A DNA stretch of 64,000 bases. Origin: Escherichia coli (lineage in GTDB: Bacteria; Pseudomonadota; Gammaproteobacteria; Enterobacterales; Enterobacteriaceae). Shown one piece after another: positions 1-64,000 of this stretch. Position numbers and translations under genes: made by a program. How positions within the stretch are numbered: the stretch's first letter is position 1; every line of letters starts with the position of its first letter. Below the pieces are notes generated by a model. The model was given only the letters and a program-made list of their open reading frames with translations, made no database searches and was not told the origin of the DNA. The stretch lies in assembly GCA_902500125.1 (NCBI GenBank), contig GCA_902500125.1_4132.1, one strand, 5' to 3'.

Positions 1-168
1 GGTTATAAGAAAGAAGTACAGAAGATTGATGTATTTGTTCGTGCATTAAGTCCAACACATGCACTATTTAAATTGTTTGATGAAGTAACTAAGTACAACA
101 CACCAAAAACACAACGCTATATTGAAACAGTACATAGTGTAATACTCACTGAATATGATGGAGAATGA
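1..168 (+). CDS. hypothetical protein, C-terminal fragment (gene begins left of window)
   Basis: Frame 1 open from base 1 to TGA 166-168; same strand and packing as following genes. Confidence 0.5.
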   Translation, partial: GYKKEVQKIDVFVRALSPTHALFKLFDEVTKYNTPKTQRYIETVHSVILTEYDGE

Positions 169-171
169 CAA

Positions 172-390
172 ATGAATTTATATCTAGTTGAAGGGTCAGT
201 ACAAGTATCCAAGCAAGACGGAGAAGGGTATCGTTTTTCACATGTAGAATATTTTAAGTACGTAGTAAAGGCCGATGGTCAGTACGACGCAGAAATTCAG
301 GTTGAAGAATCATTCCGTAAGAAGAATGATATTGGTAAATTTGAATACCAAGACTTACAATTCACTGTATGGCCTAGCATTAATGACTAA
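172..390 (+). CDS. hypothetical protein (72 aa)
   Basis: ORF track; GGAG at 160-163 upstream of ATG. Confidence 0.6.
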   Translation: MNLYLVEGSVQVSKQDGEGYRFSHVEYFKYVVKADGQYDAEIQVEESFRKKNDIGKFEYQDLQFTVWPSIND

Positions 391-595
391 GATGTGGTGG
401 TGTCATGGTGTCTACAATGTCTATGAATATGGTAGATTCAAAATGAGCAGCACCTATGCCAGACGTGTTAATGCGAAAAACCAAGTTGATGCTGCTTGTG
501 AGATTGTAGAGTGGTATGCAGAGTTCAATGCAATTGATTTTATGTACGAAATAGTTACAATAAATGTTGTACAAATTGACACGTCTTTGATATAA
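383..595 (+). CDS. hypothetical protein (70 aa)
   Basis: ORF 275..595 trimmed to ATG 383 (MTKMWW...); 8-nt overlap with previous stop; upstream part lies inside 172..390. Confidence 0.45.
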   Translation: MTKMWWCHGVYNVYEYGRFKMSSTYARRVNAKNQVDAACEIVEWYAEFNAIDFMYEIVTINVVQIDTSLI

Positions 596-629
596 TAACT
601 GTATCAAAACAACCGCAACTGAGGATACT

Positions 630-1292
630 ATGTTAGTTAATCTTAATTTCATCACTTCTCCTGATTGGGCATTGCGTGGTGTTTCTTTGAACTTTAAAGA
701 AACTAATTTCGACTACATTGGTGATTGTACTTTAGTTAATGCTACATTTGATCCTCATCATCCTTTTTGGGCTGAAATTCATGATCCTAATGTAAACAAT
801 AGTACATCTGTTATGACTATTGTACAGACGAAACATACAGGTATCCTCGCAGGTTACAGACCAGGACATGCGATTGAACACTTCACTGATTATGATGTAG
901 TAGATGAGTATCCAATGATCCATGAAGATGGAAGTTTATACACGTCAGAAGACTTCCGTGCTATCTTTAATAGTACTGATGACATTCTACCAAGTGGTCG
1001 TCCACGCCCTGAGTCTTATCTTATGCACTCGTCTTATGGTGTAGCAGATACGCTTGAACAGATTTTGACGAAGTACAAGAACCTTATTGAAGGTCCTGAA
1101 GAAATTGTCATGTGCTATCATCCAGTACTGAAGTCTGACCAACCAGAGAGTGGTGGGTGGCGTTGGCATAAGAATGGTGAGTACATCGGTACTAAGCGTA
1201 GTAAAGAACGCTTTGAGTACTTGTATGATGAGCCAGATGTTGAGGTTGTTTTATGTTATAATTTTCTTAAGGTGAAAAAGAAATGTATCTAG
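630..1292 (+). CDS. hypothetical protein (220 aa)
   Basis: ORF track; GAGGA 621-625 before ATG. Confidence 0.7.
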   Translation: MLVNLNFITSPDWALRGVSLNFKETNFDYIGDCTLVNATFDPHHPFWAEIHDPNVNNSTSVMTIVQTKHTGILAGYRPGHAIEHFTDYDVVDEYPMIHEDGSLYTSEDFRAIFNSTDDILPSGRPRPESYLMHSSYGVADTLEQILTKYKNLIEGPEEIVMCYHPVLKSDQPESGGWRWHKNGEYIGTKRSKERFEYLYDEPDVEVVLCYNFLKVKKKCI

Positions 1293-1525
1293 TATTGAGT
1301 TTTGTAGTTGCATTATTGTTTATGTTCTACCCTACACTAGTAGCAGTAGCCACTAAACGAAAGCTGGTGGATATCACTACTGTATTCTTGCTAAACGTGG
1401 CACTCGTTCTAGTGTCTATTATCATTCCCGTGAGCTTTACGGTTATTGATATTATTTCGGTATTACTCTTCGTGTTAAGTTATCTTATGCTTATTGAAGA
1501 AACAAATGTTGACAAACGTTCGTAG
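1283..1525 (+). CDS. small membrane protein (80 aa)
   Basis: ORF track; almost entirely hydrophobic (2-3 TM); AAGGTG upstream. Confidence 0.6.
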   Translation: MYLVLSFVVALLFMFYPTLVAVATKRKLVDITTVFLLNVALVLVSIIIPVSFTVIDIISVLLFVLSYLMLIEETNVDKRS

Positions 1526-1536
1526 TACTGTATAAT
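1509..1536 (+). promoter_or_regulatory. sigma70-like promoter
   Basis: TTGACA 1509-1514, 16-nt spacer containing AGTACTG, TATAAT 1531-1536; feeds 1583. Confidence 0.55.
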
Positions 1537-1582
1537 GGTTCCTGTAGTCTGAAACTTAACACTTAAACTTGAGGTAAAAAAT

Positions 1583-7312: not shown

Positions 7313-7883
7313 GGAAGAAATAAACATGGAACGTTGGAAATTAATTCCTGATTATGACTATTCAATTTCTGATCATGGAAGAGTAAGAAACGAACAAACT
7401 GGATATATAAGTTGTGGATTTAAAAATAAAGATGGGTATGTGAAGGTCGATTTGTATCGCAATTCTGTGAAAAATAGAAAGGCGATTCATCGACTAGTAG
7501 CTGAAGCATTTTTACCACCACCCACACAGAAACAGTTACAGTGGGCGAGTAGAACAAAGAAAAAAGTTGTTCACATAAACCATAAAGATTGTAATAGAAG
7601 TAACAATCACTATTTGAATTTGGAATGGAACACAGCATCTGAAAACGTACTATATTCTTATTCACATGGTAACGCAACAACTAATCGTGGTGCTGCTGTG
7701 TTGACATGGGAAATTGTAAGAGAAATAAGAAAAGATTATAATGATAATTATAATGATGTGATAGAATATGCACGAGAAAATTGTAATAAATACCGTGTAT
7801 GTAAAAAAAACAATACGTCGTATTTTATACAATCAAACATGGATAGAGGATTAAAAATATGCCACAAGATAATGGGGATATGA
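7311..7883 (+). CDS. HNH homing endonuclease (NUMOD4 + HNH_3 type)
   Basis: ERWKLIPDYDYSISDHGRVRN (NUMOD4-like) and HINHKDCNRSNNHYLNLEWNTASEN (HNH); start could be ATG 7326. Confidence 0.85.
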   Translation: MEEINMERWKLIPDYDYSISDHGRVRNEQTGYISCGFKNKDGYVKVDLYRNSVKNRKAIHRLVAEAFLPPPTQKQLQWASRTKKKVVHINHKDCNRSNNHYLNLEWNTASENVLYSYSHGNATTNRGAAVLTWEIVREIRKDYNDNYNDVIEYARENCNKYRVCKKNNTSYFIQSNMDRGLKICHKIMGI

Positions 7884-51754: not shown

Positions 51755-51816
51755 TTGACAAAGTATATCAGTACTGCAATAATGTATCTCGTAGGGCGGC
51801 AATGGTGCGACGGCCC
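51755..51816 (+). promoter_or_regulatory. promoter + weak stem-loop (degenerate PeSL)
   Basis: TTGACA 51755; -10 CAATAAT near 51777; GC-rich imperfect hairpin 51794-51816. Confidence 0.45.
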
Positions 51817-51836
51817 ACAAAGTTAGGAGATTCAAA

Positions 51837-52169: not shown

Positions 52170-52176
52170 AAAGTAC

Positions 52177-52238
52177 TTGCATAGTACTTAGAATCAAGTA
52201 TAATGTTTTACATAGAGAGGGGGAAATGGTTCTCCCTC
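52177..52238 (+). promoter_or_regulatory. PeSL-like cassette
   Basis: TTGCAT 52177; TATAAT 52199; hairpin 52217-52238. Confidence 0.7.
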
Positions 52239-52258
52239 CTAAATTAAGGAGTTTTATC

Positions 52259-52660
52259 ATGACCTTCTCAATCAATTCCTTCGCTGACGTTTTAGTACTG
52301 GCCCGGACTTTTGGTAAAGCTGGCCTTGAACACGCTGTAAGTAATGGTCATATGCACCCTGAATATTGCCGCATCATTGGAAGCTGTAAACGTTGGGCCG
52401 TGTCCCGTAACATTGAGATTGAAAACTTCAATGACGGTAACAACGAATATACAGTTGATGCAGTATTCGAATCCGTTGATCTCGGCGGTATCTATAACAC
52501 TAACCTGAATGATGTGCGTATCGTTCGCACGGGGTTCGGTGCTTATGATGTATCTATCCGTGAAGCTATGGACAAGGGATACATTAGCAAGGACCAGTTA
52601 GCTTACATCATGCAGCAAACTAAGGAACGTAACGAAGCACGTACTATCTTAGGGCTGTAA
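52259..52660 (+). CDS. hypothetical protein (133 aa)
   Basis: Trimmed from 52226 to ATG 52259 after AAGGAG. Confidence 0.65.
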   Translation: MTFSINSFADVLVLARTFGKAGLEHAVSNGHMHPEYCRIIGSCKRWAVSRNIEIENFNDGNNEYTVDAVFESVDLGGIYNTNLNDVRIVRTGFGAYDVSIREAMDKGYISKDQLAYIMQQTKERNEARTILGL

Positions 52661-52684
52661 GCAATACACATCACCAAACATCAT

Positions 52685-52704
52685 AGGCCGCTCTCTAGCG
52701 GCCT
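52685..52704 (+). terminator. GC hairpin, possible terminator
   Basis: AGGCCGCT-ctct-AGCGGCCT; no T tract. Confidence 0.4.
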
Positions 52705-52728
52705 TAACTATATCAGGAGGGCATACAT

Positions 52729-52938
52729 ATGTTCTATACAGTATACAGCGTTCTAGGCACTATTGCAGGCGTACATGATAACGTCGATAGTGCTATGCGT
52801 ACAGTACTGCAACAGGTTCCACTAAAGCCTAAGACCATTAAGCAGATGACAGCACGACTAACCAGGGCGACGGCTGGCGTGGAAGTATGGCAGGACTATG
52901 GGGATACACAGATAATCGTAAGCGTAACGAAGGATTAA
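52729..52938 (+). CDS. hypothetical protein (69 aa)
   Basis: ORF track; AGGAGG SD; last gene of the GC-richer block. Confidence 0.65.
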   Translation: MFYTVYSVLGTIAGVHDNVDSAMRTVLQQVPLKPKTIKQMTARLTRATAGVEVWQDYGDTQIIVSVTKD

Positions 52939-52967
52939 TGCGTAAAAGGATTTAGTACTGAATCATA

Positions 52968-53030
52968 AAAAAGTCAAGGCATTTTTAAAAATCAGCGTTA
53001 AAAAAATGCATAGGTAATCCCTTGACTTTT
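52968..53030. repeat. 11-bp inverted repeat pair
   Basis: AAAAGTCAAGG ... CCTTGACTTTT separated by about 40 nt in a non-coding gap. Confidence 0.6.
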
Positions 53031-53129
53031 ATGAATAAAAAGGGATTGGACTATGGCAAAATGCGTAGGGGGCTTAACTGCGGGTAACCTTAGCGACTTC
53101 GATAAAGGGGTATTACTAATAAAATGTTA

Positions 53130-53157
53130 TTGACTTTTTATACGAATCGTATATTAT
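53130..53157 (+). promoter_or_regulatory. sigma70-like promoter for the family B array
   Basis: TTGACT 53130-53135, 16 nt, TATTAT 53152-53157. Confidence 0.5.
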
Positions 53158-53187
53158 AGGATTGATATTATTTTTAATGGAGTCCCT

Positions 53188-53385
53188 ATGCGTATTTTAA
53201 CTCAAGCAGAACATCACGAAAGACTTATCAATAACATGGCATATATCCTACATATGTCACATATCCGTGGTATTGCATATAAGCGTGAATTGGTTATGGC
53301 ACTATTCATTGGAACTAACTTTCAGGAAAGGTATGTCAAGGATTGGATTTCATATTTAATTGAAGATATAACGGGTAAACTATGA
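53188..53385 (+). CDS. family B small protein (65 aa)
   Basis: GGAG SD; motif FIGTNFQERYVKDWISYLIEDI. Confidence 0.65.
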   Translation: MRILTQAEHHERLINNMAYILHMSHIRGIAYKRELVMALFIGTNFQERYVKDWISYLIEDITGKL

Positions 53386-53590
53386 AAATTATCACACAAT
53401 TTCAACTATATAATCTTATGATCGAATATAGAAAGAATATATATATATACCAGATGAGTTATCTAGGGATGAAAAAAAGTTTATTCTATCGGAGTGGTGG
53501 ATGATGGCTGGACTGGGAACCAACTTCCAAGAAAGTTTTGTTAATGATTGGATTTTACATTTAATAAAAGATATAAAGAGTAAACAATGA
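53382..53590 (+). pseudogene. family B member disrupted at an (AT)7 run
   Basis: ATG 53382 (ATGA-coupled) gives MKIITQFQLYNLMIEYRKNIYIY. The conserved C-half (..SEWWMMAGLGTNFQESFVNDWILHLIKDI) is in another frame. The switch lies in ATATATATATATAT 53436-53449. Confidence 0.55.
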
Positions 53591-53796
53591 AAACTATAAC
53601 ACGAACCCAATCATTAGGTCTTATCTTGAAATACATGGACTTAATGTTGGATATCAGCAAAGACCTTCCTAAAACTGAAATCCAAGTTGCAAGAGCAGAG
53701 ATCCGCATGTTGGCTGTACTGAACACAAACCATCAGGAAGATTATGTTGAAGAATGGATTCGATTTTTAATAGAAGATATAAAGAGTAAATTATGA
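53587..53796 (+). CDS. family B small protein (69 aa)
   Basis: ATGA overlap; VLNTNHQEDYVEEWIRFLIEDI. Confidence 0.65.
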   Translation: MKTITRTQSLGLILKYMDLMLDISKDLPKTEIQVARAEIRMLAVLNTNHQEDYVEEWIRFLIEDIKSKL

Positions 53797-54008
53797 TTAT
53801 TATAGAAAACTCATATCAATATACTGAACGCATCGCTGCCAGACAACTTGAAATCCTCATAATATACGAAGAGACTTCTGATTTAAACTTAGCCGAGGTA
53901 TTGGAAAATGATATACTATTGGGTGCATTCTTAGGAACAGACTATCAGAAGTATTATGAGGAAAAGTATTTGTCATCTCTTGAGAAATATATCAGGAGCA
54001 AATTATGA
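53793..54008 (+). CDS. family B small protein (71 aa)
   Basis: ATGA overlap; FLGTDYQKYYEEKYL. Confidence 0.65.
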   Translation: MIIIENSYQYTERIAARQLEILIIYEETSDLNLAEVLENDILLGAFLGTDYQKYYEEKYLSSLEKYIRSKL

Positions 54009-54217
54009 TTTTTTTAACACCAGAAGAATATAAGAAACGTTTCAATTCCGCACAGGGTGAAATCTTACTTATATACCTTTCAAATGCAGACCTTAACTTA
54101 TCAAGGGTATTAGAAAAAGATTTACTTATGGGTGCATTCCTTGATACAGACTTTCAGGTGTATTATGTAGGGGAATACTTAATTGCACTTCAGAATTATA
54201 TCAGGAGTAAACTATGA
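54005..54217 (+). CDS. family B small protein (70 aa)
   Basis: ATGA overlap; FLDTDFQVYYVGEYL. Confidence 0.65.
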   Translation: MIFLTPEEYKKRFNSAQGEILLIYLSNADLNLSRVLEKDLLMGAFLDTDFQVYYVGEYLIALQNYIRSKL

Positions 54218-54441
54218 AACATTTAAGTAATTCCGAGAAGAATAAAATTATCATTGCTGCAATAAACAAATATTTTACACTTCCTCACAAAGAAGGTTTA
54301 TGTATAAGAGAACACAGGATAAACACCACCGATATACGCATGATGGCTGTACTGGGGACGAACTTCCAGGAAGAGTATGTTATTGCACACATAGTTGCAC
54401 TCAAGAATTACATTATGGACAAATGTAATGAACATCATTAA
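54214..54441 (+). CDS. family B small protein (75 aa)
   Basis: ATGA overlap; VLGTNFQEEYVIAHI. Confidence 0.65.
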   Translation: MKHLSNSEKNKIIIAAINKYFTLPHKEGLCIREHRINTTDIRMMAVLGTNFQEEYVIAHIVALKNYIMDKCNEHH

Positions 54442-54652
54442 TAACTTTGAATACGAGGCCCGTGCTAAGAGTGCCAGAAAAAAAGAGAACACCATTTACT
54501 TCACTATGATGTACTTACAATGGACTGAAATTGAAGAAAAGGTTGCTGAAGTATGGATGTTGGAATTCATGGGGACGCAGTATCAGAATAGGTTTGCGGG
54601 TGAGTATATCAATGTTCTTATGAAACAAATAGAAAGAAAGGAAAAGAACTAA
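54428..54652 (+). CDS. family B small protein (74 aa)
   Basis: ORF 54395 trimmed to ATG 54428; FMGTQYQNRFAGEYI. Confidence 0.6.
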   Translation: MNIINNFEYEARAKSARKKENTIYFTMMYLQWTEIEEKVAEVWMLEFMGTQYQNRFAGEYINVLMKQIERKEKN

Positions 54653-54810
54653 TGGTTTTCATTAACATATCTGACCAACTCGATACTAAACTAGAAGTCG
54701 AGCAGAGTGAGGGATGGATGTTGTACTTTCTTGGAACTTCTCATCAGAATTTTTATATCCATGAACACATAGTTGCACTCACAAATCTAATAAGGGATAA
54801 ATGTAAATGA
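54652..54810 (+). CDS. family B small protein, short (52 aa)
   Basis: Not in ORF track; TAATG junction; FLGTSHQNFYIHEHI. Confidence 0.55.
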   Translation: MVFINISDQLDTKLEVEQSEGWMLYFLGTSHQNFYIHEHIVALTNLIRDKCK

Positions 54811-55064
54811 AACACTTGACGAACGATGAATATTCACTTAGAATTCGAAAGCTCACCCCAGAAGCAAGAGTAATCTACGATGACGATGCACTTTCATGGA
54901 ACGAGATGAAAGTTAAAGTTCATGAGCTATGGTTGCTGTACTTTGTGGGAACCCAATATCAAGAGAAATATTGTACCGATTATCTTGAACAACTAATGGA
55001 TCTTATACAGATAAAACTAAATGAACGAATTGTGGAAAAATATGAAAACTTTATCAAGCACTGA
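54807..55064 (+). CDS. family B small protein (85 aa)
   Basis: ATGA overlap; FVGTQYQEKYCTDYL. Confidence 0.65.
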   Translation: MKHLTNDEYSLRIRKLTPEARVIYDDDALSWNEMKVKVHELWLLYFVGTQYQEKYCTDYLEQLMDLIQIKLNERIVEKYENFIKH

Positions 55065-55293
55065 GTATCAAACTGCCCTCTTCTCCCTTCTAAACACCCT
55101 CCGCACGAACAATAAACTTTATAATTCCCGTGAAGCTGATATCGTCAACGCTGATGTATATCTTAATAAATTCATAGGGACTAACTATCAAGAACTGTTC
55201 ACTCTACGATATATCGCTGCATTGAGAAACGAAATATCAGATAAAACCCGTCAAGCCAGAAGAGAATGGAATAAACAATGCGACAAAGACTAA
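55042..55293 (+). CDS. family B small protein (83 aa)
   Basis: ORF 55021 trimmed to ATG 55042 (either is possible); FIGTNYQELFTLRYI. Confidence 0.55.
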   Translation: MKTLSSTEYQTALFSLLNTLRTNNKLYNSREADIVNADVYLNKFIGTNYQELFTLRYIAALRNEISDKTRQARREWNKQCDKD

Positions 55294-55514
55294 ATCACAA
55301 AATGTATTGTAAACTATTGCAGACACTGGCACAGAAACACTATGACACTGTATCTGAAATATTACCCTATGATATCATGCGTTTAATTCATAGTGAGGCA
55401 GAGATGCTTGTACTGATGACAGGCACTGATAAAAAAGCAATTGCCAAATCAATAGATATGTTCATCGAAGCACAATGTCAACACATTAGAACCGAGATAT
55501 GGAGACGAGAATGA
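55278..55514 (+). CDS. family B-related small protein, divergent (78 aa)
   Basis: Position and size fit the array; motif degraded (LMTGTDKKAIAKSI). Confidence 0.55.
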   Translation: MRQRLNHKMYCKLLQTLAQKHYDTVSEILPYDIMRLIHSEAEMLVLMTGTDKKAIAKSIDMFIEAQCQHIRTEIWRRE

Positions 55515-55726
55515 TAACACTAAATGAGTTTCAGTATCATTGGAGGTTACAAACTATCAAATCAAAAGTGTATAGTATTGTGTTAAACAAATCTATTGCA
55601 CAAGAGGACAAATGTGTTATAATAGCTGAAATGAAGTTGGGTGCTTTCGTAGGGACAAACTATCAAAACATCTACACTGACGTATTGTTAAGTGCCTTAC
55701 GTAACAAGGTGGTATCCAAAATATGA
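55511..55726 (+). CDS. family B small protein (71 aa)
   Basis: ATG 55511 is 6 nt after GGAG and ATGA-coupled (ORF track 55499); FVGTNYQNIYTDVLL. Confidence 0.6.
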   Translation: MITLNEFQYHWRLQTIKSKVYSIVLNKSIAQEDKCVIIAEMKLGAFVGTNYQNIYTDVLLSALRNKVVSKI

Positions 55727-55941
55727 GAAATTTACAAGGCTTTGAATACATCAGACTCCTGAAAACATGCACCAGCAGAAGGAAAATCTTATCAAGCGAT
55801 AAGAGCATCCAAGCTAACCTTAAGCACGCACTAGTAACTGAACTCTATGTAGGTGCACTCTTAGGCACAAACTATCAACAAATGTATGTGGATCTATGGA
55901 TTGACGCTCTACAGAAAGAGGTTAAAAGTAAATGCAAATGA
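55723..55941 (+). CDS. family B small protein (72 aa)
   Basis: ATGA overlap; LLGTNYQQMYVDLWI. Confidence 0.65.
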   Translation: MRNLQGFEYIRLLKTCTSRRKILSSDKSIQANLKHALVTELYVGALLGTNYQQMYVDLWIDALQKEVKSKCK

Positions 55942-56150
55942 TTAATTTAAGTAAAGATGAATATTATGAACGTCTTGCAAAAACTTATCCAGCACGTAAG
56001 GCCGTTTATGATAGTCACATTATTGAACGCTCAAAGAAGTTGATTGTAGTAAATGAGATTAAGATGCTTTCAGTCTTAGGAACAAACTATCAAGAGAATG
56101 CTGTACTGTTGTTAATTGATGCCCTCCAGAGAGAGATACAAAGTAAATGA
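55932..56150 (+). CDS. family B small protein (72 aa)
   Basis: ATGCAAATGA junction (alternative ATG 55938); VLGTNYQENAVLLLI. Confidence 0.6.
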   Translation: MQMINLSKDEYYERLAKTYPARKAVYDSHIIERSKKLIVVNEIKMLSVLGTNYQENAVLLLIDALQREIQSK

Positions 56151-56395
56151 TTCATTTATCTTACCATGATTATCAAAAACGTTTAAATGCATCAAGGGAT
56201 ATAAGGATTCAAATCTTCAATAACAAAAAATTGAAACCTGACACCAGAAGAATCAAAATGATAGAAGCAGAGTTATGCAACTTCCTGGGGACGAACTATC
56301 AGGCAGGTAAGGTAAAAAACTATCTTAGAGAACTAATGATTTGTATCGAAAATAAATGTGAGGTTGATGAACATGCAAATGATCAATTTAAGTAA
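56147..56395 (+). CDS. family B small protein (82 aa)
   Basis: ATGA overlap; FLGTNYQAGKVKNYL. Confidence 0.65.
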   Translation: MIHLSYHDYQKRLNASRDIRIQIFNNKKLKPDTRRIKMIEAELCNFLGTNYQAGKVKNYLRELMICIENKCEVDEHANDQFK

Positions 56396-56636
56396 AGATG
56401 AATATACCGAGCGTATGACAAAAATTACGCACAAACGTAATACAATCTATCACAACCCAGAAATTCAACACAGTAAGAAAATGATTATGATGCGTGAGTT
56501 AAAGATGGGTGTATTCTTGGGAACAAACTATCAAGAGCCAGAAGTAAATCGATTAATTGCTGAGTTACTATTGGAAATCAAAGGTAAGCTGTACTTTCAT
56601 CAAATGACCCAGCCACTGAGGTGTACTGATCGATGA
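56373..56636 (+). CDS. family B small protein (87 aa)
   Basis: ORF 56358 trimmed to ATG 56373 (MQMINLSKDEY, as in 55932); FLGTNYQEPEVNRLI. Confidence 0.6.
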   Translation: MQMINLSKDEYTERMTKITHKRNTIYHNPEIQHSKKMIMMRELKMGVFLGTNYQEPEVNRLIAELLLEIKGKLYFHQMTQPLRCTDR

Positions 56637-56884
56637 ATGCGATGAATATTGTGAATAACATCAGATTAGCAGAAAGATTTGATAGAATTGGGGAAGCACT
56701 GAGAAGATACGATAAAGAATATGGTCATTTGAGCTTTTCTATAGAAAAGAGATATGAACTTGAAGCAGAGTTTAAAATGCAGAGTCTCTTAGGCACACAG
56801 TATCAAAACCAATATATTCAAACTTGGATTGATTGTTTAATCCAGACAATTTACGTAAGAAACATTAAATGCAAAATGAAATGA
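56633..56884 (+). CDS. family B small protein (83 aa)
   Basis: ATGA overlap; LLGTQYQNQYIQTWI. Confidence 0.65.
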   Translation: MNAMNIVNNIRLAERFDRIGEALRRYDKEYGHLSFSIEKRYELEAEFKMQSLLGTQYQNQYIQTWIDCLIQTIYVRNIKCKMK

Positions 56885-57129
56885 TATACTTAACCTATAA
56901 TGAATACGTCGAGAGATTAGTTCGTGCCAAGAGATATACCAATAAACGTCCAATTGACCTAAACCAAACCCCAGCAGAAAGGAGTGCAGAAGTATTATTC
57001 CAATCACTACCATATCTTCTGGGAACTGATAGACAAGAGGAATATGTTGCACGTATGATTAGATATCTTAAAATCACTATTAAGGAAAAAGTAAATGCAA
57101 ATGCAAATGAAATACTTAACAGACGATGA
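56869..57129 (+). CDS. family B small protein (86 aa)
   Basis: LLGTDRQEEYVARMI; alternative ATG 56881. Confidence 0.6.
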   Translation: MQNEMIYLTYNEYVERLVRAKRYTNKRPIDLNQTPAERSAEVLFQSLPYLLGTDRQEEYVARMIRYLKITIKEKVNANANEILNRR

Positions 57130-57352
57130 GTTAAAAGAACGACTAATTAAATCCAGAAAACTTACAAATCAACTTCCAAACGACACAAACAAGTCACATG
57201 CCGAAAGGAGTGCAGAAGTTTTATACATTCAACTCATGTACTTTCTTGGTACTGACAGACAAGAGTATTACATTGAAAGTATGCTTCGATATCTTAAATT
57301 CTCTATAAAGGAAAAGATACATGCTCAAGAATTTAAAAATCCTAACAGTTAA
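57095..57352 (+). CDS. family B small protein (85 aa)
   Basis: FLGTDRQEYYIESML; close paralog of 56869. Confidence 0.6.
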   Translation: MQMQMKYLTDDELKERLIKSRKLTNQLPNDTNKSHAERSAEVLYIQLMYFLGTDRQEYYIESMLRYLKFSIKEKIHAQEFKNPNS

Positions 57353-57563
57353 TGAATATCATAAGATTGTAATGAAAACTAATAGTGAAATTTCTAAAAA
57401 ATCAAACCCAAAGTACATACTGGAACACACATTCGAAGAACGTCAATTAGCTCTAGTTGAAGCAAAACTTCTTGCACTCCTAGGGACTAACTATCAAGAA
57501 GAATACATCAGAAAACTAATATACCTTTTAACTAAACATATAAGAAAAAGAAAAAATGCATGA
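57321..57563 (+). CDS. family B small protein (80 aa)
   Basis: AAGGA SD; LLGTNYQEEYIRKLI. Confidence 0.65.
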   Translation: MLKNLKILTVNEYHKIVMKTNSEISKKSNPKYILEHTFEERQLALVEAKLLALLGTNYQEEYIRKLIYLLTKHIRKRKNA

Positions 57564-57790
57564 AACACTTGACAGATGATGAACATGGGCTTATAGTAAT
57601 GGATGTAATCAACATCGAATACAAAAAGTTGATACGCTACCGTTGTTATGAAGATAAGCAACTCGTTCTAGCAGAACAGAAGTTGTTTCGACTCTTAAAC
57701 ACAAACTTCCAAGCACAATACGAAGAATCGTATATGTACCTTTTGGCGAGGAAAGCAAAAAGAGATTATGAAAATTTTAAGCAAAGGTGA
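57560..57790 (+). CDS. family B small protein (76 aa)
   Basis: ATGA overlap; LLNTNFQAQYEESYM. Confidence 0.65.
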   Translation: MKHLTDDEHGLIVMDVINIEYKKLIRYRCYEDKQLVLAEQKLFRLLNTNFQAQYEESYMYLLARKAKRDYENFKQR

Positions 57791-57983
57791 TTCAGTAATA
57801 TTACTTATAGAGAGTTCAAGTAAATTCTTAAACATAACACTGTCTGATATAGATGAAGATGACAAAGAAGTACTGAGAGCAGATTTAAGAGTACTGTTAC
57901 ATATCGGAACAAACCTACAAGAAGAATATGTAGAGTGCTACATCAATGAACTTAAAGAATTAGTACTGAGAAAATGCAAATGA
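57768..57983 (+). CDS. family B small protein (71 aa)
   Basis: HIGTNLQEEYVECYI. Confidence 0.6.
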   Translation: MKILSKGDSVILLIESSSKFLNITLSDIDEDDKEVLRADLRVLLHIGTNLQEEYVECYINELKELVLRKCK

Positions 57984-58201
57984 AAATCATTACCGATGCA
58001 GAATACCTAACAATCATAAATGGACTGTTTTTGAAGCTCTTCGTCATTAACACATCAGATATACCAGATATGGATAAAATTATTAAGAGAAATGAAGTCT
58101 ATGTTCTAGCTACCCTTGGAACGAACTATCAAGAACACGACATTAAAGATTATATTAATACACTTAAACGAGCGATTGAACTAAAATGCCAAAACCACTA
58201 G
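57974..58201 (+). CDS. family B small protein (75 aa)
   Basis: ATGCAAATGA junction; TLGTNYQEHDIKDYI. Confidence 0.6.
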   Translation: MQMKIITDAEYLTIINGLFLKLFVINTSDIPDMDKIIKRNEVYVLATLGTNYQEHDIKDYINTLKRAIELKCQNH

Positions 58202-58401
58202 GAACAGCAGAATACATTGAACTAATGGGATTACACTTCTCATCCTTTCAGAAACTTATGCGAGAATCAAAGAATGATTTAGAATATACCATCAGAGGTT
58301 CCGATTTAAGAATGCTTCTCACCCTAGACACAGATTCCCAAGAGCGATTTGTCAATGAGCATATTAGAGCACTTTTAATGGAAATTCAAAGTAAACTATG
58401 A
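58186..58401 (+). CDS. family B small protein (71 aa)
   Basis: TLDTDSQERFVNEHI. Confidence 0.6.
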   Translation: MPKPLGTAEYIELMGLHFSSFQKLMRESKNDLEYTIRGSDLRMLLTLDTDSQERFVNEHIRALLMEIQSKL

Positions 58402-58613
58402 AGGTAATATCAAATCAAGAGTACTTGGCACTATTCAGGAAGAATAATCACAAATATATGGCACTTGATTCAAGAACTGATATAAGTGAACTTGAAAAAA
58501 ATCTTTTGCGTTCAGATATGATAGTACTGACACTCTTAGGAACACAGCATCAAGAGAGAACTGTTAATTCACACATAGGGATTCTAATGCAGATAGTACA
58601 GGAAAAGATATGA
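58398..58613 (+). CDS. family B small protein (71 aa)
   Basis: ATGA overlap; LLGTQHQERTVNSHI. Confidence 0.65.
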   Translation: MKVISNQEYLALFRKNNHKYMALDSRTDISELEKNLLRSDMIVLTLLGTQHQERTVNSHIGILMQIVQEKI

Positions 58614-58831
58614 GAATCATAACACAACAAGATATTCTTAAGTTCACAAGGGTTCATGCATCTGAATTTGATGCTATATTATCAAAAAGTTACAACAACC
58701 CTTATACAGAAGATGTACACTACAATGAATTATGGGTGTATATACTTTTAGGTACAGATCATCAAGAGCAAGCAGTACAGAAGTATTTGTTAGCTTTACG
58801 TGATGCTACTGCTAATGGAGTACGTGTTTAA
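58610..58831 (+). CDS. family B small protein (73 aa)
   Basis: ATGA overlap; LLGTDHQEQAVQKYL. Confidence 0.65.
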   Translation: MRIITQQDILKFTRVHASEFDAILSKSYNNPYTEDVHYNELWVYILLGTDHQEQAVQKYLLALRDATANGVRV

Positions 58832-59075: not shown

Positions 59076-59409
59076 TATACAACTCAAGGTATATAAATCA
59101 TTTGAACATACATATATCAAAAGTAGTCTATGTAGAGATGTAATGGATTACAAGGGTAAGCCATTCACAATTACTTATGATTCTTATGTTGATGATTTAT
59201 ATATATCATTTGTTAATTACGAAAATAAAATATACAAGCACGTTGATATTAAAGATTTAAGTACTTTATCACCAGAGGAATACTTCCAGGAATCATTAGT
59301 ATGGGATTTAGAGTTCCCTATGCCATTAGTACATAAGATGATAGTACTAATGAAAGAATCTAAACAGGAGCCTAATAGTGCTTATGAAGAACACATTATT
59401 GAGTATTAA
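59065..59409 (+). CDS. family C protein, short form (114 aa)
   Basis: Motif LSPEEYFQESLVWDLEFPMPLVHKM. Confidence 0.65.
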   Translation: MKTNIQLKVYKSFEHTYIKSSLCRDVMDYKGKPFTITYDSYVDDLYISFVNYENKIYKHVDIKDLSTLSPEEYFQESLVWDLEFPMPLVHKMIVLMKESKQEPNSAYEEHIIEY

Positions 59410-59779
59410 GAGTACTGATAATATTAAGAGTTATACAAGCTCAAGTACTGTGACAATCGAAGTGAATTCTATTAATGCTGGTAATGCAGTAGATAAGTTC
59501 TTTATTGCTCAAGGGTACAGGAAAGATATTCATCAATATTGTTCAGTATATGGGGAGTACAATAGTACTGAAGATATAATTTATTGGTCAACACATCAAG
59601 ATTATCTAACTAAAATTGGAGTCCCAGATGTTAGTACTTTATCTGAAGAAGAATACTTTCAGTACAGCTTAATATGTGATGTACCTATACCTTTAGGGTT
59701 AATCAAGGGTATACAGGAAGAGGTTCATAAGCTTAAATCCATGAGTAAAGGTACTTTCATTAGAACAGTGCAATACTAG
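59378..59779 (+). CDS. family C protein (133 aa)
   Basis: GTG 59378 is 9 nt after AGGAG (alternative ATG 59384); LSEEEYFQYSLICDVPIPLGLIKG. Confidence 0.6.
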   Translation: MLMKNTLLSIKSTDNIKSYTSSSTVTIEVNSINAGNAVDKFFIAQGYRKDIHQYCSVYGEYNSTEDIIYWSTHQDYLTKIGVPDVSTLSEEEYFQYSLICDVPIPLGLIKGIQEEVHKLKSMSKGTFIRTVQY

Positions 59780-59780
59780 C

Positions 59781-59809
59781 TTGACAGTACTTTTCATTAC
59801 TGATATAGT
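59781..59809 (+). promoter_or_regulatory. sigma70-like promoter
   Basis: TTGACA 59781, 17 nt, TATAGT 59804. Confidence 0.5.
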
Positions 59810-59838
59810 ACACTAACGTTAATCATAGGGTAAAAATT

Positions 59839-60084
59839 ATGTTAAATTTTTTAAATTTCCTTATCGTTTTGTGTATTGTTCTTGGGATTGCACCATTTGT
59901 ATTGTATTTCATGGATTCAGATGAAATGCAGAAGATGAATTGTACAAGGACAGGACAGAGTAGAGAAGAGACGATTCTTATGCCTGTTACGGTTATTGTT
60001 AACAACATGCCCATTACAAACATGGTCCCTACCCTAACGACAACGTACCAGTACTCTTGTGCTGACGGAGAGAGGTGGAGATGA
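59839..60084 (+). CDS. membrane protein (81 aa)
   Basis: ORF track; N-terminal TM MLNFLNFLIVLCIVLGIAPFVLYF. Confidence 0.6.
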   Translation: MLNFLNFLIVLCIVLGIAPFVLYFMDSDEMQKMNCTRTGQSREETILMPVTVIVNNMPITNMVPTLTTTYQYSCADGERWR

Positions 60085-60401
60085 AATTTAATATAGCAAA
60101 AACATCGAGTATATGTATTTTTGGTTATGCAGAAGAGTTAGGTGATATTGACATTCTTTTGTACAAAAAGGATGGTGTTATGCATTTCAAGTACCAGGAT
60201 GAAGAGGCAGACAATTATCTTTTACCTAATTTAGTACAAATGCAGGAAGAGGAATTATTCCAGTACAGCTTAGTATACGACATTGATATTTGCACGATGC
60301 CAGTACTAATTAGTATTCAAAAAGTGATGCTCGATATGTATGATAAGCTAATACAAGGTACATCAGGGAGAATCATTGAAATCGATATACAAGACAATTA
60401 A
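60075..60401 (+). CDS. family C protein, short form (108 aa)
   Basis: GGTGGAG SD; QEEELFQYSLVYDIDICTMPVLISIQK. Confidence 0.65.
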   Translation: MEMKFNIAKTSSICIFGYAEELGDIDILLYKKDGVMHFKYQDEEADNYLLPNLVQMQEEELFQYSLVYDIDICTMPVLISIQKVMLDMYDKLIQGTSGRIIEIDIQDN

Positions 60402-60594
60402 TCAAGAATGGAAGACCCAAAAGTACAGGGAATTCAACAGGAATTTTACAAAAGATGCATTGAATTTAAAAACAACAGAGTTTGATATGTTTATTTTTCT
60501 TGGAACACGTTCACAAGAACAATTTGTTCATTATTATATAAATTCGTTGCGAACGGAGATAGTATGCAAAACACAGGGTATTATAAAAAGGTAA
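60376..60594 (+). CDS. family B-like small protein (72 aa)
   Basis: TTG start 5 nt after GGGAG (no in-frame ATG until codon 46); FLGTRSQEQFVHYYINSL. Confidence 0.5.
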   Translation: MKSIYKTINQEWKTQKYREFNRNFTKDALNLKTTEFDMFIFLGTRSQEQFVHYYINSLRTEIVCKTQGIIKR

Positions 60595-60830
60595 ACCAAT
60601 ATTTGTACGCTACAAAGTACAGGGATTTTTGTTTAAAGGGTGGTGATGAAGATTTTTCTTTGCGATTATCAGAATTTAATCTGTTATTTTATCTTGGTAC
60701 AAAAGAACAAGAAGAAATGGCACAGAAATTTATCAAGCACCTTTTACAAAAAATTAATATGCAAATTTTGATGCTTAAGTTACAGAATGAGATAAATGAA
60801 TATGAATCCAGAAATAGTACAGGATCTTAA
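60564..60830 (+). CDS. family B-like small protein (88 aa)
   Basis: GGAGAT SD; YLGTKEQEEMAQKFIKHL. Confidence 0.6.
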   Translation: MQNTGYYKKVNQYLYATKYRDFCLKGGDEDFSLRLSEFNLLFYLGTKEQEEMAQKFIKHLLQKINMQILMLKLQNEINEYESRNSTGS

Positions 60831-61188
60831 ACAAGTAATATTCCTTTTGAATACCAGAAGTGAATTGTATACAGAGTTAAAAGAGATTAATGCATTTTAT
60901 CAGAATTTTGTAATCCAAGAGTTCAGTGATTTAATTACAGATGCATTATTTGAATTCTCGGAGAAATACAAAGGAACAGAGTTCAGTGTTAAGAATGTTA
61001 TTCGTCCAAGTACAAGGAAAATTATATTATCACATTTTACATTTGACAATAAAGATTTATTCAGTCATAATCCAAGTACAGCTTTATATTTTATTCCTGA
61101 TTCAGACAAAAATCATCCTATTCATTACGGATGGATTTTGTCATATATAGTACAAGGAAAGGAGTATCCTATTAAATGGAAAGATTAG
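60796..61188 (+). CDS. hypothetical protein (130 aa)
   Basis: ORF track. Confidence 0.6.
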   Translation: MNMNPEIVQDLKQVIFLLNTRSELYTELKEINAFYQNFVIQEFSDLITDALFEFSEKYKGTEFSVKNVIRPSTRKIILSHFTFDNKDLFSHNPSTALYFIPDSDKNHPIHYGWILSYIVQGKEYPIKWKD

Positions 61189-61337
61189 GGCGATTAGATT
61201 ATTACACAATTAATACAAATTATTTGTTGAGTAATATAAAATCCGATTACAAAATATGGATAAAGAACAGAGATAGCATGTGTTATGAATTTTATTTAGA
61301 TTATGCTATCAAACGATTTTTAAGAGAAGAACATTAA
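61176..61337 (+). CDS. small protein (53 aa)
   Basis: Not in ORF track; ATG 61176 after GGAG; ends TAATG into next gene; fills gap. Confidence 0.4.
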   Translation: MERLGRLDYYTINTNYLLSNIKSDYKIWIKNRDSMCYEFYLDYAIKRFLREEH

Positions 61338-61540
61338 TGCAAAAGATTAATACGATAACATTAAATGCATTACAGGATTCATTATTAGATAGTATTAAGA
61401 TGTATTACAATATACATTTGAAGGGTGGTATTGATAATTACGATTATTATTTGAGTTTAATTACATTTGAGCACCTTTCAGTACAGGACAGGATTATACA
61501 TCCTACAAATCCTAGGTATCCATCGATAGGTAAATTATGA
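61337..61540 (+). CDS. hypothetical protein (67 aa)
   Basis: ORF track; TAATG junction. Confidence 0.55.
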   Translation: MQKINTITLNALQDSLLDSIKMYYNIHLKGGIDNYDYYLSLITFEHLSVQDRIIHPTNPRYPSIGKL

Positions 61541-62085
61541 ATGAGATAGATTTATTAGCACACAAGATAAGTACAATAATGCTTATCCTCAATAACAACC
61601 ATCCTATATCGCAGATAGATGGAATCCTGAGTCAGAGGACAGGTGGTAGTTTATATTTGTCCATAAACGCAGATATCGCAAGGAAATACATTGATATTGA
61701 TGTTGAAATCGAATATGATACAACGGGGATTGTTGATGTAGGAGCATTAATCAGTTCAAATCCAGTATCAGCATCCCCATTGACCAAAGATGTTAGTACA
61801 GGATTCGAAGGATATTTGTGGTACAATACCAATGATGATTATTTTATATATCAGCATTCCAATACAAATTATGATGAAGACAAATTTCAGTTCATAGACC
61901 CTTATGATGAAGCTGAAGTATTTCAAAAATCATTAATCACAAAACCGCATGAGATGATGTATCTAATGTTATTCAGTACAATGCATTTGAATCCATTAAT
62001 TAAAGGTTTAAAATTTTATATTCAATTAAATTTAGTCCATGTAGTTTATGATTTATTAATGCAAGGATATAGTTATGAAGTATAA
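61537..62085 (+). CDS. family C protein, long form (182 aa)
   Basis: ATGA overlap; DEAEVFQKSLITKPHEMMYLMLFSTMHLNPL. Confidence 0.65.
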   Translation: MNEIDLLAHKISTIMLILNNNHPISQIDGILSQRTGGSLYLSINADIARKYIDIDVEIEYDTTGIVDVGALISSNPVSASPLTKDVSTGFEGYLWYNTNDDYFIYQHSNTNYDEDKFQFIDPYDEAEVFQKSLITKPHEMMYLMLFSTMHLNPLIKGLKFYIQLNLVHVVYDLLMQGYSYEV

Positions 62086-62386
62086 AATGATGTATACCCC
62101 AGATATGATTTATGTTGAATTAGAAGATGATGACGATGGGTGGAATTTGATTTATTCAAGAAGTTCAGGTTGGTACATGGCACATTTAAATGATTCGATA
62201 GTTACAGATTATTTTGTAGATTTCAATACATTATCCGATGAAGAATTGTTCCAACAGCAATTAGTGATTGACACGGGTGGTTATGATGTCTTATTATTAA
62301 AAAAGATACAAAAAGCTGTTATTGATTTTAAGCCCATGATATGGCAAAGGAAATATTATGACCTCGAAGTACCATACCAGCAATGA
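62075..62386 (+). CDS. family C protein, short form (103 aa)
   Basis: AAGGA SD; LSDEELFQQQLVIDTGGYDVLLLKKIQK. Confidence 0.65.
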   Translation: MKYKMMYTPDMIYVELEDDDDGWNLIYSRSSGWYMAHLNDSIVTDYFVDFNTLSDEELFQQQLVIDTGGYDVLLLKKIQKAVIDFKPMIWQRKYYDLEVPYQQ

Positions 62387-62924
62387 AATTCAGTACACCT
62401 ACGCTAATGCAATCCTTATGGGACAAAAGTTAGCTTGTATTGTTGCAGCCTTATATAATGCCCAGAAATATCACAAGCGTCATTTCCACAAATGTATTGG
62501 TATTATTCCATCGAAGTACAATACATATATTGCGTGCACGAGTCATTTTGATAAACGATTCAATACACCTGATACCCCAAATGCCAGTAGTGTTATTGGT
62601 CTTTTGGATTTCGCACCTGGTGCTGTTATTGGAAAGAATGATTTAGAGTACACATGGTATAATAAAAATGCCCCGTTAGTAATGGGAAAATATGATACAG
62701 AAACGAATAAAACAATAGAGTACAATACATATAAATCAGAGGAAGAATTTTTCCAAGGTTCATTGCTTGTACCAGTGCGTTTGTTGTTTTATAATGTCCT
62801 TATTAGTACAGTACACAATAGTCCATTACACAAGAATCACAAAATTAATTTCAATTTTTGTGCTTATGCGATTGATGGTGTGTATGAGTGTTTAATGGAG
62901 GTATTGAGTTATGAAGCTGAATAA
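62358..62924 (+). CDS. family C protein, long form (188 aa)
   Basis: AAGGA SD; SEEEFFQGSLLVPVRLLFYNVLISTVHNSPL. Confidence 0.65.
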   Translation: MTSKYHTSNEIQYTYANAILMGQKLACIVAALYNAQKYHKRHFHKCIGIIPSKYNTYIACTSHFDKRFNTPDTPNASSVIGLLDFAPGAVIGKNDLEYTWYNKNAPLVMGKYDTETNKTIEYNTYKSEEEFFQGSLLVPVRLLFYNVLISTVHNSPLHKNHKINFNFCAYAIDGVYECLMEVLSYEAE

Positions 62925-63252
62925 TACATTTGATATTAATAAGTTAAGAGAATGGTTTTATAGTATTGAAATTGAAGCCATCCCGTATCATAGATATGAA
63001 CAATATAATTTAACCAGTATTGATATCCGTGAGTTGTACGCGTATTATCAAAGTGCATTAGAGATGCATAAGTTATTTTTGAGTACAGATTTTGTTATAA
63101 ATTACAATTTTGAGGAATTTAATAATTATAATTTAGTACAGAAATATGTAGTAGCAAAGTACATGTACCTTCAAGGAATTACAAGTAATTTGGAATTCAA
63201 TACAGTCCTGGCTTTAGTTGAGGTAATTTTATGCAGTACATGTATGATTTAG
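62911..63252 (+). CDS. hypothetical protein (113 aa)
   Basis: GGAGG SD. Confidence 0.6.
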   Translation: MKLNNTFDINKLREWFYSIEIEAIPYHRYEQYNLTSIDIRELYAYYQSALEMHKLFLSTDFVINYNFEEFNNYNLVQKYVVAKYMYLQGITSNLEFNTVLALVEVILCSTCMI

Positions 63253-63737
63253 AGTTTAGTTTAGATGCTGCCTTTAAATTTGTTCACAAGATAGAAACAA
63301 TATACAGTACATTATGTGCAATACAATCAGTATCATCTGAGTTTGATGTTGGTGAAAAATATCAGGTATGGAATAATACATTTCTAAACAAAGAACGTTG
63401 CTCTACGGGGTTTAATATTTTAACATTTAATCCCAGCAATTGTTACCCAGAGAAGCATGAACGTTATCCGAATGACGACATGTGGTTTGATTACACAAAA
63501 GATGGTGATATGTCATCCCTTGTAGTTCCTGATGATTTTAATGCCGAAGATTTAACGAAAGAGTGGTGGTTTCAACAGAATTTAGTACACGATGATATTG
63601 ATTTATTTTTTTATGTAGTATTTAAAATGCTTTACCACAACAATATATTAAAAGATAGTGTGTTTTTTTCATGTCTATATATTGATGATTTGTACAATGA
63701 AATCCAAATCAACATGCCCAGAACGCCTGTATCGTAA
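63231..63737 (+). CDS. family C protein, long form (168 aa)
   Basis: GAGG SD; LTKEWWFQQNLVHDDIDLFFYVVFKMLYHNNIL. Confidence 0.65.
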   Translation: MQYMYDLEFSLDAAFKFVHKIETIYSTLCAIQSVSSEFDVGEKYQVWNNTFLNKERCSTGFNILTFNPSNCYPEKHERYPNDDMWFDYTKDGDMSSLVVPDDFNAEDLTKEWWFQQNLVHDDIDLFFYVVFKMLYHNNILKDSVFFSCLYIDDLYNEIQINMPRTPVS

Positions 63738-63762
63738 GATATGGGCTTTTTTCGTTTTGGTA

Positions 63763-63791
63763 TTGACAAAGAAGTGCAAAGCTGTTATCAT
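63763..63791 (+). promoter_or_regulatory. sigma70-like promoter
   Basis: TTGACA 63763, 17 nt, TATCAT 63786; preceded by GGGC + T6. Confidence 0.5.
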
Positions 63792-63819
63792 GTGTAATCA
63801 TTTTAAAGGAGAACATATA

Positions 63820-64000
63820 GTGAGTTTCATAATCCCAAGTACATACGAAGATGCATCAAGTGCAGTGTATAAGGTTCATTATATTTTTAATTTAATTATT
63901 AGTGCATCAAAAAATAAAATGTATGCACCTCTTGTGAAATATGATAAAAATGAGGAAATTTTTGTTAGCACAGAACAAACGATTTTTCCATATTTCAAAG
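63820..64000 (+). CDS. hypothetical protein, N-terminal fragment (runs off window)
   Basis: GTG 63820 is 7 nt after AAGGAG; frame open to the window end. Confidence 0.5.
   Translation, partial: MSFIIPSTYEDASSAVYKVHYIFNLIISASKNKMYAPLVKYDKNEEIFVSTEQTIFPYFK

Follow-up and report, generated by a model that had tools for sequence, protein, structure and literature searches.

The hexamer AGTACT is a highly iterated palindrome in the 64,000-bp stretch of DNA analysed here (the window; contig GCA_902500125.1_4132.1 of the Escherichia coli assembly GCA_902500125.1). It is a free-standing signal of 6-8 bp, and purifying and positive selection act on it at the level of DNA, genome-wide. By megablast the whole window matches the 121Q/PBECO4/G17/phAPEC6 group of jumbo coliphages (genus Asteriusvirus, genomes of about 350 kb) at 92-97% identity, and no record identical to it was found. 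Its G+C content is 35.6%. The full genome of EC22.5-2 (351,992 bp) was the main comparison and G17 a further relative; for RaK2 (Klebsiella) and GAP32 (Cronobacter) arbitrary regions, not whole genomes, were counted.

AGTACT is the commonest hexamer of the window. It occurs 278 times, once per 230 bp, where base composition predicts 21.6 copies and a first-order Markov model 21.3; the excess is 13-fold. The octamer CAGTACTG is present 65 times (once per 985 bp), compared with 0.80±0.94 in dinucleotide-preserving shuffles. Under a maximal-order Markov model, which conditions on sub-words that are themselves already inflated, the z-scores are 14.2 for GTAC, 12.8 for AGTAC and 8.7 for AGTACT. The hexamer also heads the list in the whole EC22.5-2 genome, with 919 copies against 119 expected. 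A preliminary description of the window had proposed that AGTACT is heavily over-represented and had called for Markov-corrected k-mer scores; the excess is stronger than it claimed, and all three corrected scores are strongly positive. Its manual tally for 32.1-34.2 kb (22 sites) was exact, and the others were slightly off: there are 8 sites rather than 7 in 1-2.7 kb, 7 rather than 5 in 20-22 kb, and 11 rather than 12 in 40-42 kb.

The sequence around the core is symmetric. C is found at position -1 in 47% of the sites and G at +6 in 49%, with weak preferences for T at -3/-4 and A at +3/+4, giving the weak extended consensus TTnCAGTACTGnAA. Flank information is close to zero past about ±4 bp, so AGTACT is a free-standing palindrome and not part of a longer repeat. 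The preferences for C(-1) and G(+6) are nearly independent of one another, which fits two additive half-sites. Words that differ from AGTACT at one position occur at 0.5-2.1 times expectation, compared with 7.7 times for the full hexamer. AGTACT has two of the properties of a highly iterated palindrome (HIP): it is a short perfect palindrome over-represented at least 10-fold genome-wide, and it is found in non-coding DNA and in all phases of coding DNA, where it is kept by selection.

Evidence for that selection comes from the coding sequences (CDS). According to our own gene calls (161 genes, 82% coding), 176 sites are in CDS (3.35 per kb, about 10-fold enriched), with 73, 43 and 60 in phases 0, 1 and 2, respectively, and 102 are intergenic (8.9 per kb). 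Counting inside the extracted gene sequences instead gives 177 CDS sites (73/43/61). Synonymous-codon shuffling within genes, which leaves each protein unchanged, produces 55±6.5 sites (maximum of 76 in 300 trials) and codon-order shuffling 24±5, against the 177 observed. The dipeptides Ser-Thr, Gln-Tyr and Val-Leu are 1.5-1.9-fold over expectation in the window proteins, and 73 of the 139 Ser-Thr codon pairs are spelled AGTACT. Codon choice and amino-acid order have therefore both been bent towards AGTACT. The sites also persist between relatives. In the alignment with EC22.5-2 (94.5% identity), 92% of the sites (210 of 228) but only 79% of all hexamers are unchanged (p = 5e-8). The figures are 93% versus 78% in CDS and 91% versus 80% between genes, and against G17 they are 92% and 78%. 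Gains and losses of AGTACT are balanced (16 and 18). The suggestions in the preliminary description that the motif occurs in all three codon phases and that it is selected as DNA are both upheld by these counts.

Promoters account for a minority of the sites. In the early-type region (34226-52953, + strand) there are small open reading frames (ORFs), each with a sigma70-like promoter and a hairpin cassette in the 5' untranslated region (5'UTR) upstream. This region has 122 AGTACT sites: CDS account for 58 (4.3 per kb) and the DNA between genes for 64 (11.8 per kb). The cassette found before most of the small ORFs consists of a near-consensus sigma70 promoter, the sequence gttttacatc, a conserved 5'UTR hairpin (GGGGAGAA..TTCTCCCC) and a ribosome-binding site; the cassettes are located in the intergenic regions of 34589-53187. 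The motif takes two sharp positions within them, either overlapping or abutting the upstream edge of the -35 element (AGTAC-TTGCAA, AGTACTA-TTGACA) or abutting the -10 element (AGTACTG-TATAAT, AGTACTGG-CATAAT). With the first base of the -10 hexamer as reference, the motif piles up most at -27 and at -7/-8, and the starts of the two motifs are 20 bp apart in promoters that have both. One such promoter is at 37287-37319 (+), where AGTAC-TTGCAA overlaps the first base of the -35 element and AGTACTG-TATAAT abuts the -10, with starts 20 bp apart. Another, at 40180-40215 (+), reads AGTACTA-TTGACA-N9-AGTACTGG-CATAAT and has motifs on both sides of the -35 element. Only 33 of the 278 sites are within predicted core promoters and 245 are outside them, so that promoter and terminator cassettes do not explain the enrichment, a possibility that the preliminary description had raised against itself. 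The contexts that it named are all present: AGTACTGTATAAT occurs 12 times, AGTACTTGCA 17 times and CCAGTAC..GTACTGG hairpins five times. A repeated element, whether a repetitive extragenic palindrome (REP), a miniature inverted-repeat transposable element (MITE) or a promoter cassette, was rejected as the source of the motif, as the copies share no sequence past the core and only those 33 sites are in promoter cassettes.

These data bear on the proposal that AGTACT is a passive by-product of cassettes, of codon and dipeptide usage, or of the decay of restriction sites (AGCGCT/GCGC to AGTACT/GTAC). In its favour, duplicated intergenic cassettes do carry the motif, no four-base palindrome other than GTAC and TGCA exceeds expectation, and the window proteins have a surplus of Ser-Thr, Gln-Tyr and Val-Leu. 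The proposal is nevertheless contradicted by the flank, shuffling, conservation and promoter results, and we regard it as scarcely credible. Most sites are outside core promoters, their flanks have no repeat signal, they are conserved above background, and synonymous shuffling yields only a third of the observed CDS count. The purged sites would also be too few, with about 32 AGCGCT and about 290 GCGC expected in EC22.5-2 compared with a surplus of about 800 AGTACT. A mutational drive of the very-short-patch type was rejected as well. No Vsr homologue was found; of the would-be products of deamination, AGTATT reaches 1.19 and AATACT 0.95 times expectation, and nothing here points to a drive by biased repair.

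Other palindromes have been purged from this DNA. Twenty-four six-bp palindromes, each with at least four G/C, have no copy in the window, and GCGC is absent where 49.7±6 copies are expected. In EC22.5-2, 23 six-bp palindromes are at zero, each of which is expected 8-32 times. RaK2, GAP32 and the siphovirus loci described below show the same extreme avoidance. The phage lives by restriction-site avoidance, and this makes the enrichment of a single palindrome more striking; the contrast with palindrome avoidance in phages that was drawn in the preliminary description is sharper than it stated. AGTACT does not behave as a restriction target, since it is enriched and not avoided while 23-24 other palindromes are at zero, and no endonuclease was identified. 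The link to ScaI-type restriction-modification that had been suggested holds for the identity of the hexamer and is otherwise nominal, as no restriction enzyme cognate to AGTACT was found. The E. coli Chi sequence (GCTGGTGG) has accumulated too, with 28 copies in EC22.5-2 against 1.9 expected; the window has 16, of which 12 are on the + strand and 4 on the - strand. This shows that DNA words read by the host do accumulate in this phage genome. In RaK2 and GAP32, too, hexamers that resemble Chi head the lists.

The motif is shared by phages of related hosts, a spread that the preliminary description had not noted, as it had not noted the single-orientation variant domain described below. AGTACT is enriched 7.1-fold in the RaK2 region (119 vs 16.9) and 6.4-fold in the GAP32 region (64 vs 10). 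There is no enrichment in PA5oct, the Pseudomonas relative (1 vs 11.5±3.5), or in T5, an unrelated AT-rich coliphage (10 vs 13.5±3.7). Special avoidance of AGTACT by the host was considered and rejected: in 50 kb sampled from E. coli K-12 there are 3 sites against 11.6 expected from composition, but dinucleotide shuffles give 4.5±1.9, and the word is merely rare there.

A scan of IMG/VR for two copies of CAGTACTG within 30 bp recovered Rak2-like contigs and a second family of carriers. The second family comprises 28 loci on contigs of 25-35 kb with 42-43% G+C, in which AGTACT occurs 1061 times against 78 expected (13.6-fold). It is a clade of temperate siphoviruses with a lambda-type portal, a gpA-type terminase, an HK97 capsid-protease fusion and a large serine recombinase. 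In Leclercia it is present as a prophage of 42% G+C flanked by host DNA of 55%. The Leclercia loci were retrieved through protein homology and not through the motif, and they have 4-5 AGTACT per kb, with 87 sites in CDS compared with 19±4 after synonymous shuffling. Distant members (24-50% protein identity) have the motif and lack GCGC. The sequence logo of the clade is the same as that of the jumbo phages, with C(-1) and G(+6) at 60% each, T at -3/-4, A at +3/+4 and the extended form TTnCAGTACTGnAA. The siphovirus clade and EC22.5-2 have 21 of 23 zero-count palindromes in common, and the Spearman correlation of palindrome profiles with EC22.5-2 (63 palindromes) is 0.86 for the siphoviruses, 0.88 for GAP32, 0.77 for RaK2 and 0.02 for PA5oct, from which the listed palindromes have not been purged. 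GCGC is at zero in the siphovirus clade as well. The only gene content found in common between the jumbo and siphovirus lineages by blastp, tblastx and phmmer is a T4-type lysozyme domain, and a shared phage gene behind the motif was rejected on that ground. The siphovirus clade is uncultivated, with genomes of about 33 kb (L133 and L134 in Leclercia; L017-L130 in IMG/VR), and it is without a close relative among isolated phages: its best capsid match to a deposited phage is 37% identical. In the literature that could be searched, including that on iterated palindromes in phages, we found no report of AGTACT or CAGTACTG as a motif of these phages.

Because two lineages with only a lysozyme domain in common have the same site with the same flanks, a reader supplied by or tied to the host is likelier than a conserved phage gene. 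We therefore prefer, with limited confidence, the reading that AGTACT may be a recognition signal whose reader is tied to the enterobacterial cell. The symmetric flanks lead us to infer a sequence-specific factor that would read the DNA duplex with two-fold symmetry, each subunit taking one TTnCAGT half-site. Hundreds of sites would load this factor along the whole phage DNA, and the loaded factor might mark, organise or shield that DNA. The sites of best consensus, packed into a 2.1-kb non-coding region ahead of the early genes, could be part of the same arrangement, and at early promoters, where sites are on the -35 and against the -10 element, occupancy might also gate transcription. A broader formulation is possible though rather doubtful: that unrelated, palindrome-purged phages of Enterobacteriaceae have been loaded independently with CAGTACTG, or with CAGTACAG in one domain, for an unknown cellular or defence-related machine. 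Sequence alone cannot decide among binding, modification, nicking and packaging, the functions that the preliminary description had listed.

Several observations weigh against a host-tied duplex reader. No DNA-binding protein of E. coli is known to us to have this site, and none of the candidates examined was identified as the reader. A Pfam scan of the 71 early-region proteins detected no helix-turn-helix or ribbon-helix-helix domain. Pair spacing of AGTACT is almost flat with only a small peak at 20-22 bp, so that cooperative arrays are hardly indicated. Part of the sharpness of the positions in promoters comes from the common descent of duplicated cassettes rather than from independent placement, and these positions are therefore not independent evidence. 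It is also not obvious how the phage would gain from a host repressor on its early promoters. Finally, a one-way variant, AGTACA, is found in 29:0 orientation in the window and 49:0 in G17, and a symmetric dimer on duplex DNA cannot alone produce such a pattern.

To our knowledge, SlmA is the only enterobacterial DNA-binding protein whose site has an AGTACT core. SlmA-binding sites (SBS, GTGAGTACTCAC) resemble the phage motif in this centre and differ from it at flanking half-site positions 1-3. SlmA needs G1, T2 and a purine at position 3, followed by A4 and G5 (PMC3020112). SlmA sites (half-site GTRAGY/RCTYAC) were rejected, as positions 1-3 of the phage motif are T, any base and C. The phage base at -1 is C in 44-60% of the sites and G in only 7-10%, and -2 is without preference. 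The SBS-like words GTNAGNNCTNAC and GAGTACTC occur two and four times in 352 kb. The LexA SOS box was rejected, with one match to CTGT-N8-ACAG and three to TACTG-N10-CAGTA in 352 kb and no spacing peak at 18 bp, and so were TrpR-type operators, for which the required 14-bp spacing peak is absent. The only Pfam matches among the 71 early-region proteins are DUF7249, a DksA/TraR zinc finger, a GNAT domain and a ParE-like domain; the larger window proteins yielded no relevant match.

The window has two AGTACT-free stretches, 52,954-57,869 and 60,302 to the end. The first (4.9 kb) is occupied by tiled paralogues of about 70 aa, and its probability at the genome-average density is about 3e-6. TGTACT occurs 10 times in 53-57.9 kb, which looks like a conserved codon pattern inherited by paralogy among these paralogues. 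The second lies in a polar domain (59328-64000, +), in which AGTACT ends at 60,302 and there are 29 copies of AGTACA on the + strand and none of TGTACT. These AGTACA sites are in all codon phases and between genes, have the usual flanks (CAGTACAG), lie on the sense strand and reach a density of about 5-6 per kb. The same domain is found in EC22.5-2 at about 55-85 kb, where the 60-65 kb bin contains 27 AGTACA and neither TGTACT nor AGTACT, and in G17 (L001, 25365-34351), with 49 consecutive + strand AGTACA sites and none in the other orientation. In the rest of EC22.5-2, AGTACA and TGTACT are equal at 186 each. The IMG/VR scan yielded no phage family with CAGTACAG genome-wide, only scattered matches. 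A strictly one-way variant suggests that a strand-specific process, or a module of different history, is involved.

This domain speaks for the main rival reading, in which the motif is a protective or processing signal for a DNA-translocating enzyme, as Chi is for RecBCD, with the strand-specific CAGTAC as its unit. The palindrome CAGTACTG would then work from either side, and the AGTACA domain would be a region in which one direction is wanted or tolerated. No other idea accommodates a single-orientation domain conserved in three genomes. One-sided CAGTAC without the following T is still enriched: EC22.5-2 has about 158 copies where about 41 are expected, and the siphovirus clade about 321, again where about 41 are expected (figures derived by hand from the counts). 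The same phage has clearly accumulated genuine Chi, which shows selection on host-nuclease signals, and the trait tracks the host clade, with both carrier lineages under extreme nuclease pressure. We nonetheless consider a translocase signal unlikely. We know of no enterobacterial nuclease or translocase that recognises this sequence, the siphovirus clade shows no Chi enrichment, and flanks that are symmetric to ±4 bp favour duplex over single-strand recognition. As to polarity of the Chi kind, the palindrome has no orientation, and its AGTACA variant is polar in one domain of 5-9 kb and unbiased elsewhere, as the 186 copies of each orientation indicate.

An epigenetic role appears improbable. 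AGTACT would in this case be the target of a methyltransferase, either a host enzyme or one of the phage (Dam-type or C5), and the palindrome would be iterated because of the methylation or for its sake, which is what has been proposed for HIP1. The genome of EC22.5-2 does encode a Dam-type N6-adenine methyltransferase (PF05869) and a 286-aa C5 methyltransferase, and the specificity of neither is readable from sequence. AGTACT is a known restriction-modification target (ScaI), and 919 unprotected sites would be lethal in a host with an AGTACT restriction enzyme. The solved structures that best match the C5 enzyme (307362-308222, L008) are the catalytic domains of eukaryotic DNMT3A/B/C, over the full length and with E about 1e-23; they rank ahead of M.HhaI and M.HaeIII. 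This DNMT3-like relatedness is taken to suggest a very short target, which speaks against the enzyme as the reader of AGTACT. No methyltransferase motif was found in the siphovirus-clade ORFs. The lack of a Vsr homologue and of a deamination or very-short-patch signature in AGTATT and AATACT also counts against methylation, as do flank preferences that extend past the hexamer, which are unusual for a Type II methyltransferase, and the status of methylation target would by itself leave the 13-fold enrichment unexplained. The same two methyltransferases have been noted for phAPEC6 (PMC7247149), and the cores of HIP1 are methylated (PMC6604393).

The distribution of sites along the genome is uneven. 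In EC22.5-2 there are 28-39 AGTACT per 5 kb in the early region, 10-20 in much of the genome and 5-11 across 150-300 kb, and one bin is empty. Within the window, the longer the genes the lower the density (4.4 per kb below 80 aa, 3.4 at 80-150 aa and 2.5 above 150 aa), and the window genes show no bias of AGTACT towards their ends. The richest cluster, and the one of best consensus, is a 2.1-kb non-coding, repeat-rich region (32115-34225) with 22 sites, among them 14 full CAGTACTG and 13 CAGTACTGA. Full CAGTACTG makes up 64% of the sites in this cluster, compared with 21% in CDS. Many of the sites are within local repeats. Short tandem repeats of the GGCTAGAT/TGGATGGCT type are at 33152-33330 and 33949-34120, with a 53-bp unit in 2-3 copies and two AGTACT in each. 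The region could be an origin, a terminal element or a landing pad for a protein. Database records of several relatives are linearised near it, which is suggestive, though not proof, of a position near the genome end.

A decrease in density away from the early region might be expected if the motif acted in RNA, where copies of the self-complementary CAGUACUG on one transcript would pair and so give structure to AT-rich phage mRNA, or where AGUACU would be an endoribonuclease target that times decay, as with RegB of T4. A palindrome reaches the mRNA in either gene orientation, palindromic flanks would lengthen duplexes between copies, and the AGTACA variant is on the sense strand in its domain. 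Against this, the richest cluster with the best consensus is the gene-free 2.1-kb region, and variants that tolerate G·U pairing are not enriched. CAGUACAG is not self-complementary, and its pairing partner is absent from the polar domain. The same octamer and flanks would also be unlikely to arise in two unrelated lineages without a common reader. An RNA-level function is very unlikely on these grounds.

The closest known phenomenon is HIP1 (GCGATCGC) of cyanobacteria, of which AGTACT may be regarded as an analogue and not as a member of the family. HIP1 occurs within genes and between genes, and both it and CAGTACTG are octameric perfect palindromes that are over-represented by orders of magnitude. 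In Synechocystis there is one copy of HIP1 per 1131 bp, maintained by selection (PMC6604393). AGTACT differs in sequence and in its carriers, which are a virus and an unrelated prophage clade of Enterobacteriaceae instead of a cellular genome; the host chromosome is without AGTACT enrichment (3 sites in 50 kb), and a link to a cognate methyltransferase, as for HIP1, is not established. It also has a polar domain of a one-base variant. We know of nothing comparable for HIP1. Chi is likewise a short word gathered by selection for a host enzyme; it is itself about 15-fold enriched in this phage group, and the AGTACA domain is polar as Chi arrays are. Chi, however, is asymmetric and abundant in the host, whereas AGTACT is palindromic, rare in the host and without a known reader. 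The promoter-early stem-loop (PeSL) cassettes of T4-type phages, reportedly described by Arbiol et al. in 2010, appear to resemble the 34-53 kb cassettes in that small early ORFs each have a strong sigma70 promoter and a conserved stem-loop, repeated in a plastic region. They would cover the intergenic cassettes only, not the 176 coding sites or the genome-wide enrichment. The target of the ScaI/Eco255I type is the identical hexamer; phages avoid restriction targets, whereas AGTACT is enriched and no cognate endonuclease was found.

Where the reader of an over-represented oligomer is known, as for Chi, the FtsK orienting polar sequences (KOPS) and DNA uptake sequences, the oligomer has each time exposed a DNA-handling machine. 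AGTACT is the commonest word of 350-kb phage genomes from which other palindromes have been erased, and it recurs with its flanks in an unrelated clade of prophages whose hosts belong to the same family. Its reader is open to a cheap pull-down with one oligonucleotide (the TTTCAGTACTGAAA duplex), which could reveal a new anti-defence or DNA-organising mechanism in a host that has been studied well. If the broader formulation given above is true, and unrelated phages have been loaded independently with the signal for a cellular or defence-related machine, the motif would amount to a new interface between phage and host, comparable to Chi: a DNA password by which invading DNA is protected, marked or organised. 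The combination of abundant AGTACT and absent GCGC is a signature by which such phages might be spotted in metagenomes, and the motif calls for caution in phage engineering and recoding.

The remaining features of the window are as follows. Positions 1-18.4 kb have mixed genes on the + strand. An HNH/NUMOD4 homing endonuclease at 7326-7883 was identified by Pfam match among otherwise uncharacterised genes. Eight tandem paralogous genes with RCC1 repeats (245-401 aa) occupy 18562-27816 on the - strand and are annotated in relatives as 'DNA condensation protein'. The five short hairpins CCAGTAC-N3-6-GTACTGG are also on the - strand, at 17390, 21055, 24617, 25428 and 26624 (17390-26641); four of them are in short gaps after RCC1-like paralogue genes and are probably the terminators of these genes. 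From 34.2 kb onward the window has many small ORFs on the + strand, and in the intergenic regions of 34589-53187 a second repeated element besides the promoter cassettes, aaaaagggattgactccggtcagtccctttgctattatata, is present in four copies and is terminator-like. No tRNA genes or Rfam families were detected in the window, and stop-codon reassignment was rejected as the cause of the many small ORFs, since the long ORFs are almost unchanged under every reassignment. Further Pfam matches are a DksA/TraR-type zinc finger (44186-44443), a GNAT acetyltransferase (44508-44864) and a ParE-like toxin domain (47399-47653). Two blocks on the + strand, 27920-32114 and 53188-58831, are made up of paralogous families of back-to-back ORFs of 60-75 aa that overlap at their starts and stops; the AGTACT-free stretch 52,954-57,869 belongs to the second block. 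The first block consists of tiled paralogous ORFs of 60-70 aa with M.KEYY-like N-termini and has 35 AGTACT in its coding DNA (8.5 per kb).

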